Positions 39,799-64,000 of a stretch of DNA of 64,000 nt are shown piece by piece. Both the position numbers and the translations under genes were made by a program. Each line of letters begins with the position of its first letter. Positions within the stretch are counted from its first letter, which is position 1. Under the pieces are notes generated by a model. The model searched no databases and was not told the origin of the DNA. It saw only the letters and a list, made by a program, of their open reading frames with translations. The stretch lies in contig JASCQW010000072.1 of NCBI GenBank assembly GCA_030264375.1, positions 83,332,164-83,396,163 on the forward strand. Reading direction: 5' to 3'. The DNA is from Carcharhinus longimanus (Eukaryota).

Positions 39799-39839
39799 TG
39801 CTTCTGAAGTTCATCAATGCGATTTCTGGCTGTAGTAAT
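39799..39839 (-). CDS. TNNT3: TNNT3 mutually exclusive exon 17-like, ITTARNRIDELQK(H)
   Basis: 41 nt, phase 0 to 2, ttacag/gtaagt; resembles mammalian ITTLRSRIDQAQKH; branch-point-like TACTAAT upstream. Confidence 0.93.
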
Positions 39840-41063: not shown

Positions 41064-41104
41064 AACTTAGCCAGCAGCTCCAATCTTTTACGCAGTGTTG
41101 TTAT
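41064..41104 (-). CDS. TNNT3: TNNT3 mutually exclusive exon 16-like, ITTLRKRLELLAK(F)
   Basis: 41 nt, phase 0 to 2, ttttag/gtaagt; resembles mammalian IMNVRARVQMLAKF. Confidence 0.92.
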
Positions 41105-49672: not shown

Positions 49673-49789
49673 AATCCTCTCTTTCAGAGCAATCAGTTCC
49701 TCTTCCTCCTTCTTCCTATTCTCAAAATGAAGGTCAATCAGGGCTTGCAGCTCAACCAGATCTTTGTTCTGCCGCTTCTTCTGGATGTC
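49673..49789 (-). CDS. TNNT3: TNNT3 exon, [39 protein letters not shown]
   Basis: 117 nt; [11 protein letters not shown] is the fast-isoform signature (slow and cardiac have DIHRKRMEKDL). Confidence 0.97.
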
Positions 49790-53389: not shown

Positions 53390-53411
53390 TTCATCTTTGG
53401 CTTTTCCTCCT
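53390..53411 (-). CDS. TNNT3: TNNT3 exon 9-like, (E)EEKPKM(K)
   Basis: 22 nt, phase 1 to 2; T-rich acceptor, gtgagt donor; equivalent to mammalian EEKPRPK. Confidence 0.88.
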
Positions 53412-58541: not shown

Positions 58542-58565
58542 CGTCTTCATCTTCGTTTCCATAAA
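58542..58565 (-). CDS. TNNT3: TNNT3 N-terminal micro-exon, (V)YGNEDED
   Basis: 24 nt, symmetric phase 1-1; T-rich tract then acag acceptor, gtattt donor; acidic peptide. Confidence 0.65.
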
Positions 58566-59867
58566 CTGTCCATTGCAATGAAAAAAACACAACAGAGTAA
58601 AACAAGATTAAGTCAATGTGTTCAGGATCGTTATTCGACTTAGTGAAATTTGTAGACTGACTGTGGGCTTGCACTGATTCATTCTGCGCTAAAGATTCAC
58701 TCAGGATATGGAACACCTTGCTTGCACTATTGATTGGAGGTCAGAATAGTTTGATGTGTATCAAAGCCTGATTTCAGTCAGATGTGTTTGTGCTCTGACT
58801 TCTTTCTCAGGATTAAACTGAACCAACTCTGTCAGATGGGGCCTATTTTGCAGGCTGCTTGACACTCATTTGACCATCTTGCTAACAATTAAAACCCTCT
58901 GTCGTACATCACCTGGCCCTATTCGGACAATTACTTGGAGTCCAGAATCACACGTGGAATTGTATTAAATTGAGCAGTGATTACGCTCGGTGAGAATCAA
59001 CAACGTGAGTGTAGCTAACTACACCTTGACTGCCAACATGGATTCAATCCTCTGCTTAGGTTATGGTTTTGGCATAATCAAGGCTAATTCTAACCTCATG
59101 TGTTCATTTATATGCATTACTTTATAGCTATATGTAAATAAAATTAAATGTTTCTAGATGCACATAAAATTACTCAGAATAACAGATTCATAGCATATTT
59201 CTTTCTTTAATTCTTTGCTAATGCTCTCAATTATCCATTCCCTAACCATAAATATGAAATTAGGATATGTGCCAGACACAGTTGTGTCTATGGACTATCC
59301 ATGAGCAAACTCTATCCACAAGTCTTCTATTGTGTCACAATTATTAGTTGATGACATAATATACAGAGGGTGACATATAAATGTAGAACTTTCACGGTCA
59401 GGACATACATTGTGTTTTGAAGATGATCAAGTAAATGAATTGTAGATTAAATGACACATCCTTCGATGAAACACCCAAAAAATATGGTTTAAAATGTAAA
59501 ATTACACAAAACAAAACTAAAGGCACTTCTTCCCCAACAGGTTTTATTGAGCAGGATAATCAAGATGAGCAGATATGCAATAGGCCATTAAAATGCAATC
59601 TGAATTTGAATGCCAAGATAAGGATCTAATTAAATGTGGTACCCTCCTGAGTCAAACATGCACCTTGGCAACCTCTACAAGGCCTCAGTTAAGAGGTAGC
59701 AAGCAGAATCAAGTGGTAATAGGTGGAAATTCTTTGCACAGCAATATTAGCTACACACTGGCTGGAAAGGGACAATATAACTTGTCCAAAGCATTCCCTG
59801 AAAAAGAGATTTGAAATAACTTGGAATCCCATGCATGATTTATAAAAAACAGCAAAGAGCAACATAC

Positions 59868-59885
59868 CTTCTTCATGGTGCACTT
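59868..59885 (-). CDS. TNNT3: TNNT3 N-terminal micro-exon, (E)VHHEE
   Basis: 18 nt, phase 1-1; ttctcccag/gtatgt; resembles EVHEE-type variable-region exons. Confidence 0.82.
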
Positions 59886-60681
59886 CTGGGAGAAGTCAGG
59901 TACATGCAGTGAGCAGCAAATACAAAGAAGCAAAATACATGTTAATACTAAGCGTTGAAGAGCAAAAGATGTCAATGCAGCAGACGCAGGGCTGCCCCAA
60001 GAAGAACTAACAAATCATTAAACTAAATGCAAGAGGGTTACCTTTTCAGCATAGATTACCAACTTAGTTTAGCTATTCCCAGAACAATTAATAGCCCTAT
60101 AATTACATATTGGCAATGCCTCCATCACTCATGTTATCAAAAGCTGATTAAATTTTATCTAATAGAAACAGAAACTAAGGAGTAATGAAGGAAATTATAA
60201 TATCTCACTAATAAATGGTGATGATGGGTGATACATAAGCATTGAGGATGCAAATGAACACAGAATAATTAGGAACTATGATGGATACAGAATGATTGGG
60301 ATGATTAATGCAAAATAATGGGCAAAATGAAGGATACGACATCATTGGAATTGATAATGAAGTGGAATGATTGAGGATAAGGAAATGAACATGAGGAGGT
60401 AATAAAACAAGGGAAAAACAGTAACGTGCAAATGAAAATTAGAAGAGAAAAAAAGCAAATGAGAGAAAAAGAGAATGAAGGTAAAACAGAGGACTGAAAT
60501 AAAAAAAGGATCAGAACATAACATTCGATGAAAAGGAAAGGGGGAATGAAGAAGAAAATGAAATGACAAAATATAAGGATAAAAGGAAAAACAAGAGGGA
60601 AAATAAAAATGAAGGAAACTAAAAGGACAATAAGAGGAAAAAAGAAAAAAAAGGAGCGTAAATGGATATTGCATTACATAC

Positions 60682-60699
60682 CTTCTTCAGCAATCTCTT
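60682..60699 (-). CDS. TNNT3: TNNT3 N-terminal micro-exon, (E)EIAEE
   Basis: 18 nt, phase 1-1; attttcag/gtatgt. Confidence 0.8.
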
Positions 60700-61529
60700 C
60701 TGAAAATGGTGTTAATGTACAGCAAGCAGAAAAGAAGCAATGCAGGGATTGAAAGGGACAAGACAGAAAAGCATAAAAGGAACAATATTGACTTTTATTT
60801 ATATTTGTTAGCAGTAAAAACTAGTATAAGAATAAAGAGAAATATACACAGAAGCAAAAGTCTCCTCCTTCACATACATTCACTCCAAACTTACTTAGGT
60901 AACATACACCAATTAATTGTTACAACAAAGCGCACTTCGACAGACATGAACCCAAAATAAAAACATGATAGATATCATTCAATCACCTTTATATTCCTGA
61001 ATGTCAGGAATAAAAATCTTTCACACCAACAGGGATAAACAGTCTCCATATTTGTCCTTTGTCAATGTTCAAACATTCTTCATCCATCATCATAAATATG
61101 AAGCCGGGTTACGTAGCATTCAAAGCTATGTTTAATAAACTGTCCATGAACAAATACTAAGCCACTGACAAATCTTCAGCTGTATCATAAATATTGGATG
61201 GTGGCAAAACATATAGAAGGTAACATAACATATAACATTCACACTCAAACAATTATATTAGGTTTTGATATGACCAACATCATGAATTGTAGATTTAATA
61301 ATATGTCTTTTACTCAAAACAACAAAAGATTGCTGTTTAGAATATAAACCAAACCAACAGATTTTTTTGGTTGTCACCGGTCTTATTTTTCGCATTGGAC
61401 AGTCCACTTTCAGAGTATACAATGGGAGGTGGAGACTTTATGGGTAGAAATAAGAAATAAAAAAAGATTTAAGACTTGTGAGAGTTGTGCATACGTCTCC
61501 TGGCACTAGGTGTTTATGGTGCCTTGTAT

Positions 61530-62470
61530 AAACACTGAGAATAGACAAGTGTCTAGCAATGGTAGAGTGGTTTTAATGGAGGATTGTAACTCTCATATCA
61601 ATTGGGATAGGCAGATATGTCAGAAAGGTGATGAATTTCTTGAGTGTGTTCTGCAAAGCATGCCCAAGAACCAACAAGGGAGCAAATTAGATTAAGTAAT
61701 GAGATAGGTTTAGTTAACACCCCTAAAAATGCATAAGCATTTACCTAATGTGACAGAGTTCAACATGGTGTTTGAAAGGGAATAGCTATTAAGACTCTAG
61801 ATTTTAGGTAAGGCTGACTTCAATGAAATGAGGCAGAAATGCTTCGCAACAAAAGGGGCAAATGTGTAAATGGGTTAAGTAGAAGGTTAGTGAGAGGTGT
61901 TCAGCAATGAATTTGTGATACAGAACAGTCTATACTTCTAAAAGACAAGTGTTTCTGCTTGCCAAATAAGCAGCTAGGGACAACTAAAGAGGTAAGAATC
62001 AACACAAAAATTAAAAGAAAGAGGATATAAAACACAGACCCTGGCAGCTGGGAGAGATACAAAGAACAATAAGGGACTACAAAGCCACAAAAAGGGAGGA
62101 TGAAAACAAATTAACATAAAACAACTCACAATTACAATCAGGGGGAAAAAAGGGTGCTCAGAAGCAATGTTGGCCTCTTAAAAACTGATAATGTTGACAC
62201 AATCATCAGTAATGGTAATAAGGAAATATCTGGCATGTTGAATAATTGGCTTACTTTTGCACTTAGAGAAAGAGGTCAGCATTTTAGATATCCCAAGGAA
62301 ACCCATTGAATCAGGCAAAGAATTGAAGCAACATTAGCAGAAACAAGATAACAGTAATGGATAAATGAATGGCACGAAAAAAGTGACGGTAACCAGGGCC
62401 ACATGGTTCCCATTCCAGGGTTTGAAGAAGGTAGGTGCGAATACAGTGACTGCCTTAACGATAATCCACT
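61530..62470 (+). mobile_element. Old CR1 endonuclease-region fragment inserted in the duplicated TNNT3 intron
   Basis: VVLMEDCN.HINWD..KGDEFLECV and LDFSKADF-like remnants. Confidence 0.65.
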
Positions 62471-63380
62471 CCTGTTTCTATGTTCCCATGCAACATCACA
62501 ACTCCAGTTATGACCTATGCATATCTTTTCCAAAACCCCTTCCATTTTGATTTGGACTTGGCAAAGAGATGTCAGCGCGAATTTGGGTTATATTTTGTAG
62601 GAAAATGTTTGTCCACAGTAGTAAATTCTCCTTTCCATTTTAATCCATCCAGCTGATTCACATCTTTTGAATCGCGCCAGCCCTTCTCCTCCAGATGGCC
62701 ACTCGAATTAGAGGACTTGTTCCTTCACTTTCCTTCCACATTTTGAAGAACAGGTGGTTCACATGAGCACCCTGCTCAATAAGCTATTGAGCCCAAATAA
62801 TATTCTAGATATCAGTAATGATGAGGTCTTGGGACGCAGTGAATAGTATCGCTACCTCTGAGCTAGAAGCTCAGGGTTCGAGTCCAAGCCCAGGATCTGA
62901 GAGCTATGGAAAGTGCGCTCAAAACGCGGACAAACAAGTTGAGTTTCAGCCTGTAAAATCATTTCAACGTGCCAATGGCAGGGAGTAGGAATGGAGAGAC
63001 AACTGGTCAGCCAGGATTGATGCAGAGTGGCACCTCTCAAGCTATAAGCCGCTGACAATAAATTAGTGAGTGACCTATCGCAGGAATAACTTGCTGTGGA
63101 AACAGACAAAAGTTTGCCTTTGTGCACCACGAGGTACGGGAAGAGGAAGAAAGTCACTAATGATATCCCAAATGAATCAGGCAGACATCTCAGACATGTA
63201 TGAAGGGCCCAGTTAAGATAGTATTTAGTGGGAAGGTCTTTGCACAGCTATTTTAACTGTGTTCACCAGGCAGGGCAGGATAAAACTATTCCCATTATCA
63301 GAGAGTCTGACAGTTCCAAAATATAACTGGTCTAAAATGTTTCCAGGAAAGGTGACTTGGAATAACAGACAGCGACATAC

Positions 63381-63398
63381 CTTCTTCAGCGTACGCTT
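63381..63398 (-). CDS. TNNT3: TNNT3 N-terminal micro-exon, (E)AYAEE; gene continues beyond the window
   Basis: 18 nt, phase 1-1; tttcccag/gtatgt; flanks paralogous to those of the 59868 exon. Confidence 0.8.
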
Positions 63399-64000
63399 CT
63401 GGGAAATGCCAGGTACATACAACGAGTAGCAAATACAAAGAAGCAAAATTTGTTTTAATACTGAGCATTGAAAAGCAAAAGATAAGAACATGCCAGAAAC
63501 AGAACAACATCAAAATGAACCAATAAATTAACAAAAAGCAACAAGGGTCACTTTTCAGCATCACTAACTTAACACAAAGGTTGTCTAGCCTCAGAACAAT
63601 TAGTAGCCCAATAGTTAAGTATTTATCATATCTCTCCCAATCAAAAGTTGCTCAAATTATCCCAATTAAAAATTCCTGAATTTCTATAAGTAGTAATAAT
63701 AACAAGGGAAATTTCAAGACATCACATGATGATTGGGGTAATGAGTGATATACACTTTTTGGGGATAACCATGGAAATTGAATGGGAAGGAAGAATACAT
63801 ACGAACTGAAAAGGAAAGAATAGATGCAAAAGGATTAGAGCTATGGAAGGGTGCACAATAATTGGTAATGGGGGATGTAGAATGATTAGGGATAATGAAC
63901 AAAATTATTGAGGATAACGAAGGATATTATTGGGATAATGTAGGAATCAGGATTATTGGGGATAGTGTAGGGTAGACAATTATTAGGGATAATGTAGGAT

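Follow-up and report, generated by a model that had tools for sequence, protein, structure and literature searches.

How new optional exons come to stand in a muscle gene is the question raised by a 64,000-nucleotide stretch of the Carcharhinus longimanus genome (contig JASCQW010000072.1, positions 83,332,164 to 83,396,163; hereafter the window), which holds part of TNNT3, the gene for fast skeletal troponin T (TnT). Where the short optional exons of this protein came from has so far been debated on the basis of their phase and of similarities between their peptides. An earlier reading of the window, here called the original prediction, had proposed that N-terminal micro-exons of TNNT3 arose in it by tandem duplication. 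Our best explanation, which we hold with good confidence, is that a 1.85-kb piece of the gene carrying two in-frame micro-exons is present in two tandem copies, likely through one event before sharks and rays split, and that the gene likely has four optional acidic peptides instead of two as a result. All coordinates are window positions, those above 64000 continuing into the adjoining stretch, and the genome searched is 2.68 Gb long.

A tandem duplication inside TNNT3

The troponin T exons are read on the minus strand of the window. Copy A, the gene-downstream copy, measures about 1.85 kb (59210..61050, with a left edge that may reach 59119), and copy B, interrupted by an insert of about 1.8 kb, runs from 61055 to about 64850, some 850 bases beyond the window end. 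Self-BLAST returned three colinear blocks at 68-73% identity, pairing 59213-59452 with 61057-61299 (68%), 59858-60111 with 63371-63623 (73%) and, past the window end, 60696-61008 with 64487-64812 (69%). Aligned over seven segments, introns included, the two copies are colinear and identical in 1108 of 1585 columns (70%); all seven segment alignments exceeded the best of 100 shuffles each, with z between 5.4 and 21.7, the weakest in the GA-rich part. Kimura two-parameter distances between the copies were 0.40-0.44 in four intronic segments, 0.34 in a fifth and 0.29 in two acceptor-side segments. With two copies side by side and colinear, their exons paralogous and their introns alignable, this is an intragenic tandem exon duplication. 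The original prediction was thus right about the aligned blocks in two places and about a local duplication of a two-exon unit, which it had put at about 1.8 kb, and the four anchor sequences it had quoted each occur exactly twice in 164 kb, once per copy. Six contigs of DNA run X13 cover a 6.5-kb stretch that includes the junction and the exon called X below, with no differences; this run is possibly the source sample itself, and it serves as a check of the assembly rather than as independent evidence.

At the junction, positions 60957-61103 match the start of copy A (z 5.7) as well as the end of copy B (z 9.0), and about 140 bases are common to the two alignments. Three-way homology was not found there, the outer copies giving z -1.0.

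The insert in copy B contains two kinds of mobile sequence. One is a decayed piece of a long interspersed nuclear element (LINE; 61432..62194, plus strand), recognized by its similarity to a nearby LINE piece (458 of 714 columns, 64%, z 10.4), in which an open reading frame fragment has a Pfam match to Exo_endo_phos_2 that is marginally under the cut-off (E 1e-5). The other is a dispersed repeat of about 325 bp resembling a short interspersed nuclear element (SINE; 62820..63150). A genome search with the insert gave 1704 candidates, and among the 40 that were scored all 39 non-self matches fell within 62820-63150, at 72-76% identity. The old transposon piece that had been noticed in the second copy is therefore real, comprising a decayed LINE piece and a SINE-like repeat, while its assignment to the CR1 clade was not confirmed, since none of three insert fragments matched Pfam and protein comparisons were not significant. 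These inserts came into copy B after the duplication.

Two pairs of micro-exons

In transcript order the exons of this region are a 33-nt exon, X, Y, X', Y', a 24-nt exon and then exon 9. All four micro-exons are on the minus strand and have a cag acceptor and a gtatgt donor. Copy A carries X' (60682..60699, 18 nt, EEIAEE) and Y' (59868..59885, 18 nt, EVHHEE), and copy B carries Y (63381..63398, 18 nt, EAYAEE) and X, the paralog of X', which lies beyond the window at 64485-64490 and with its 6 nt would add EE. The acceptor-side sequences match X to X' (identity at 142 of 183 positions, z 17) and Y to Y' (at 145 of 193, z 24), and none of the remaining 26 of the 28 pairs rose above z 6. An older duplication of X to Y received weak support, with one of four cross pairs at z 4.2 and the others at 0.1-1.0. 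All four micro-exons are phase 1-1 with lengths that are multiples of three, so any subset of them keeps the reading frame.

The three 18-nt exons with a shared donor end had been correctly placed beforehand. A paralog of the 60682 exon had also been expected shortly past 64000, and it was found there with 6 nt in place of the expected 18. A search with the exon-end motif gave six matches in 164 kb, namely X, Y, X', Y', the 24-nt exon and one unrelated site; no further copies of the unit exist in the 164 kb.

Exon X is 12 nt shorter than X', and a 5-nt word in X' recurs 12 nt apart. In a cloudy catshark model the same intron end leads into a complete exon of six residues, which makes the short X the derived form. 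Two relatives, G (run X14, 2.1% diverged) and A (run X1, 1.5% diverged), share the 6-nt X, because every gap letter in their contigs that span X (26 and 17, respectively) is explained by the indels listed. With X' as a stand-in for the ancestor, the 12 nt that X lacks in this clade were probably removed by slippage between the two 5-nt repeats. Gene conversion of X onto X' is possible but unneeded, as sawshark and skate X' are already EEVA-like. X also has a second AG three bases in, which would permit a form of 3 nt; at X', catshark models vary by one residue in a comparable way.

We propose that unequal crossing-over or replication slippage copied the exons along with their splice signals, and that splicing would have gained four optional acidic peptides in place of two; the entry of transposons into copy B and the trimming of X came later.

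Two alternative exons flank the duplicated unit. The 24-nt exon (58542..58565, minus strand, VYGNEDED), which has orthologs in catshark and chimaera models, had been overlooked, leaving the earlier exon inventory of the window incomplete. The 33-nt exon (66872-66904), on the gene-upstream side, has an internal 9-nt repeat, and its counterpart is 24 nt long in catshark, while skate models have 33 nt. A neighbouring stretch holds an 8-nt exon consistent with exon 3 (L002:938-945).

The acceptor-side introns of Y' (59886-59950) and Y (63399-63460) read as a near-identical peptide in mis-started public models, among them those of sawfish, manta, horn shark, skates and sawshark. To judge from its sequence, this part of the intron appears to be a conserved splicing element as well as a recurrent source of annotation error.

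Splicing of the micro-exons

Evidence for splicing comes from reads of relative A and from transcripts of other species. Run X1 is only guessed to be RNA, no run that holds the locus being on record as RNA (12 of 18 assignments are guesses). It contains a 1302-base joint with GT..AG ends that connects Y' to the 24-nt exon at a depth of 14.2, against a depth of 0 in the other three runs. Beside Y it has a loose end of 28 letters, which are an exact match to the 33-nt exon. Catshark Trinity isoforms in the supplement of PMC9825255 include one with Y, X' and Y' and one with none of the exons. Among Logan proteins, four that are almost the same as skate TNNT3 contain the full set of four exons, and a fifth contains three of them. 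Y and Y' are thus spliced in a near relative, and since the exons are combined in catshark and skate-like transcripts, they are additive cassettes and not mutually exclusive.

YGCY, the motif of MBNL proteins, occurs upstream of X, Y, X' and Y' at 4-8 per 100 nt versus 0-3 for ten other exons, an enrichment that was significant against a mononucleotide shuffle and, to the detriment of any regulatory reading, not against a dinucleotide shuffle. Upstream hairpins did not stand out, folding being not unusual in all four regions (z -0.96 to 0.10). MBNL1 represses the foetal exon of Tnnt3 via an upstream hairpin (PMC2018611), and inclusion of the variable exons of TNNT3 lengthens and acidifies the N-terminus and declines in mammalian development (PMC11016001). 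The shark micro-exons may be under control of the MBNL type, although support for this is thin.

Species distribution and age

The same series of exons appears in protein models of other elasmobranchs, in which we parsed exon boundaries from differences between isoforms. Catshark models have four units in the order EEIAEE, DANAEE, EEVVQE, EVHHEE, and thorny skate models have EEEVAQE, ETYAEE, EEVAAEE, EVHQEE. Models of the electric ray Narcine likewise have four units in matching order. Sawshark models have Y, X' and Y' with matching intron ends, together with read-through peptides that match the X-type and Y-type acceptor regions; in models of rays and horn shark, intron read-through matches the Y'-type acceptor region. 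Y' is the only one of the four present in models of Heptranchias, Mobula, Heterodontus, Pristis, Rhinoraja and Leucoraja. The series shared by catshark, skate, electric ray and sawshark makes the event at least elasmobranch-wide, and here the original prediction, which had supposed an independent expansion in "this lineage", is not supported if the species or family is meant.

Sharks and rays split 306 million years ago (Ma), and chimaeras branched off 421 Ma (PMC3692497). Judged by these peptides, the duplication likely predates the split of sharks and rays at about 306 Ma. The divergence between the copies implies a rate of about 0.65-0.69e-9 per site per year for an event at 306 Ma and of 0.48-0.50e-9 for one at 421 Ma.

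Alternative explanations

Several observations weigh against a single early duplication that left four working exons. The junction of copies A and B is placed only to within 60957-61103. The dating draws on proteins, most of them RefSeq predictions, rather than on genome alignments with other species, and chance alignments come easily to short peptides rich in Glu. White shark models contain X-, X'- and Y'-like peptides and no Y in 21 of 21, and models of whale shark, zebra shark, Mustelus and bamboo shark contain none of the four exons; a peptide missing from a model does not, however, show that the exon is missing. In run X1 the sole contig that links the 33-nt exon to Y skips X, and the junctions listed for that run include none of X' or X, its contigs being of a kind that drops rare forms.

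The last of these observations bears most directly on X, and the alternative that survives best is that the 6-nt X is a dead remnant, so that only three of the four exons work in this clade. We consider this nearly an even call, and inclusion of X in transcripts of this clade has about an even chance. Besides the contig that skips X, it is favoured by the relatives that share the 6-nt form, which are too close to C. longimanus to carry a signal of selection. Against it, X keeps an intact acceptor and donor and preserves the frame, it has the longest AG-free zone (142 nt) and the most YGCY motifs of the four exons, and its junctions were judged only among those listed, from contigs in which rare forms are lost.

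An origin by the same mechanism at an earlier date, before the chimaera split or at the origin of jawed vertebrates, would make these exons orthologous to alternative exons of bony fish and tetrapods. Reedfish, sterlet and gar TNNT3 do have similar short Glu-rich units here, and 421 Ma would agree with a rate near 0.5e-9 per site per year. The single chimaera model, however, has 16 residues between the flanking exons versus 24 in catshark, with no clear two-pair pattern, and neutral intron DNA of the copies can still be aligned, at 70%. The chimaera model leans towards an elasmobranch event, without amounting to proof, and we regard the older date as rather unlikely.

It is improbable that the expansion is peculiar to the lineage of this shark, or that sharks and rays acquired it separately. 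In its favour, lamniform models carry repeats of their own, and X' in C. longimanus (EEIAEE) resembles catshark X more than catshark X'. An expansion confined to this lineage is contradicted by the divergence of about 30% between copies A and B, against only 1.5-2.1% between this genome and its close relatives, by the old transposons inside copy B, and by catshark, skate, electric ray and sawshark, which share the order of the exons and the residues specific to each position.

That the blocks are dispersed transposon copies or an artefact of assembly has a negligible chance of being right: the region does hold LINE and SINE pieces and the genome search skips very common words, but copy A found only itself and three pieces of copy B genome-wide (all three candidates scored) against the 1704 candidates for the insert, 30% divergence is not that of a false duplication, and in three runs the contigs show the two copies in order. 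The unit is neither a dispersed repeat nor an assembly error, and a tandem duplication that likely preceded the divergence of sharks and rays remains our preferred reading.

Host gene and locus

The host gene was identified from its conserved core. The equivalent of core exon 11 (49673..49789, minus strand, 117 nt) has a Pfam Troponin match, finds fast skeletal troponin T as the best among 8 PDB sequences and shares 97% identity with shark TNNT3 models; the first exon of the conserved core, equivalent to exon 9, lies at 53390..53411 (minus strand, 22 nt). Per exon, the matches of catshark TNNT3 lie at 78-93% here, against 45-74% at the other TnT-like loci. The alternative exons 16 and 17, of 41 nt each, are both readable, at 41064-41104 and 39799-39839, and shark models include peptides of both types. 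This locus shares the exon 9/10 peptide KPKMKMSAPK with models of catshark and Mustelus, which makes a ground shark the likely bearer.

Upstream on the same contig we found caldesmon-family exons at 83.49-83.57 Mb and a single gene of the TnI type at 83.81 Mb, these neighbours being assigned by family only; the locus with two TNNI genes sits on another contig. This is the layout described for TNNT3 locus II, TNNI2-LSP1-TNNT3, with one TNNI upstream and LSP1, of the caldesmon family, in between (PMC9825255). Core-exon similarity, per-exon identity with catshark, synteny and exons 16 and 17 all agree with the gene named originally, TNNT3. As a synteny marker MRPL23 gave no support, none of the three ribosomal L23 matches in the genome being on this contig. 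The 100 kb upstream, where N gaps are many, yielded no exon 2, the exon with the start codon, and a genome-wide pattern for it gave one match, on a different contig, which equals the control count.

Comparison with known exon duplications

The shark micro-exons resemble the vertebrate TNNT3 exons (human 4-8 and the foetal exon; PMC2447309, PMC11016001) in that they belong to the same region of the same gene and are short, optional, Glu-rich exons of the same phase that alter the length and charge of the N-terminus. For those exons, shuffling was proposed from phase alone (PMC2447309), whereas the shark copies keep alignable introns and the event is bracketed in time. Birds provide a second case. 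The P exons, or Tx segment, of Galliformes and Craciformes are seven tandem AHH[A/E]E exons (PMC11016001, PMC7581897), so that both groups show tandem exon duplication in the variable region of TNNT3, and shark Y' (EVHHEE) resembles one Tx unit. In contrast to those seven near-identical repeats, the shark locus has undergone one doubling of a two-exon unit, which is far older and elasmobranch-wide, and the encoded peptides appear to lack a metal-binding cluster. Where Tx has four to seven tandem His-Glu repeats, the shark has two His, in one of its four exons. The parallel with galliform His-rich exons drawn in the original prediction is consequently a loose one, sound for the likeness of Y' to a single unit and not for the array or its richness in His.

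Tandem duplicated exon substitution events (PMC9741552) likewise concern exons that were copied in tandem within one gene and have persisted over hundreds of millions of years. Such exons, of which TNNT3 exons 16 and 17 are an example, are mutually exclusive, whereas the shark micro-exons are additive cassettes; the accessible part of PMC9741552 makes no mention of TNNT3. We found no description of the present duplication in open-access full text. It is a new instance of a known process.

A different kind of repeat appears in lamniform sharks. Three white shark models (P0147, P0125, P0026) and one basking shark model (P0142) contain up to five 8-residue His/Glu repeats of the type EHHEHHEG in the N-terminus of TNNT3, and across 21 white shark models their number varies between 0 and 5, the pattern expected of 24-nt cassette exons. 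A protein search with the N-terminus matched only three white shark clusters. The metal-binding Tx segment has been called avian-specific in PMC7581897, and PMC11016001 states that some cartilaginous-fish isoforms have a Zn motif; titles and abstract openings of the matching literature contained no description of the lamniform repeats. From their peptide sequence, these His-rich repeats look like the avian Tx segment, and they are a stronger lead than the duplication itself. It is possible, though we hold this only tentatively, that the N-terminus of elasmobranch TNNT3 is a recurrent hotspot of exon duplication, with a doubling more than 300 million years old, a working two-residue micro-exon of 6 nt and, in lamniforms, a His-rich array of 24-nt exons convergent on Tx.

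In this slowly evolving shark DNA the copied introns are still readable, and the locus thereby supplies a dated, direct example of how optional exons of fast troponin T arise. Its four sister exons, which differ in splicing, also lend themselves to a natural comparison, and the 6-nt X would be a clear example of deletion giving rise to a micro-exon. For muscle the consequence is probably a slight shift in charge, and the interest of the finding is evolutionary and moderate: the doubling represents an ordinary route to a longer acidic protein tip, with its tracks still visible in the DNA.

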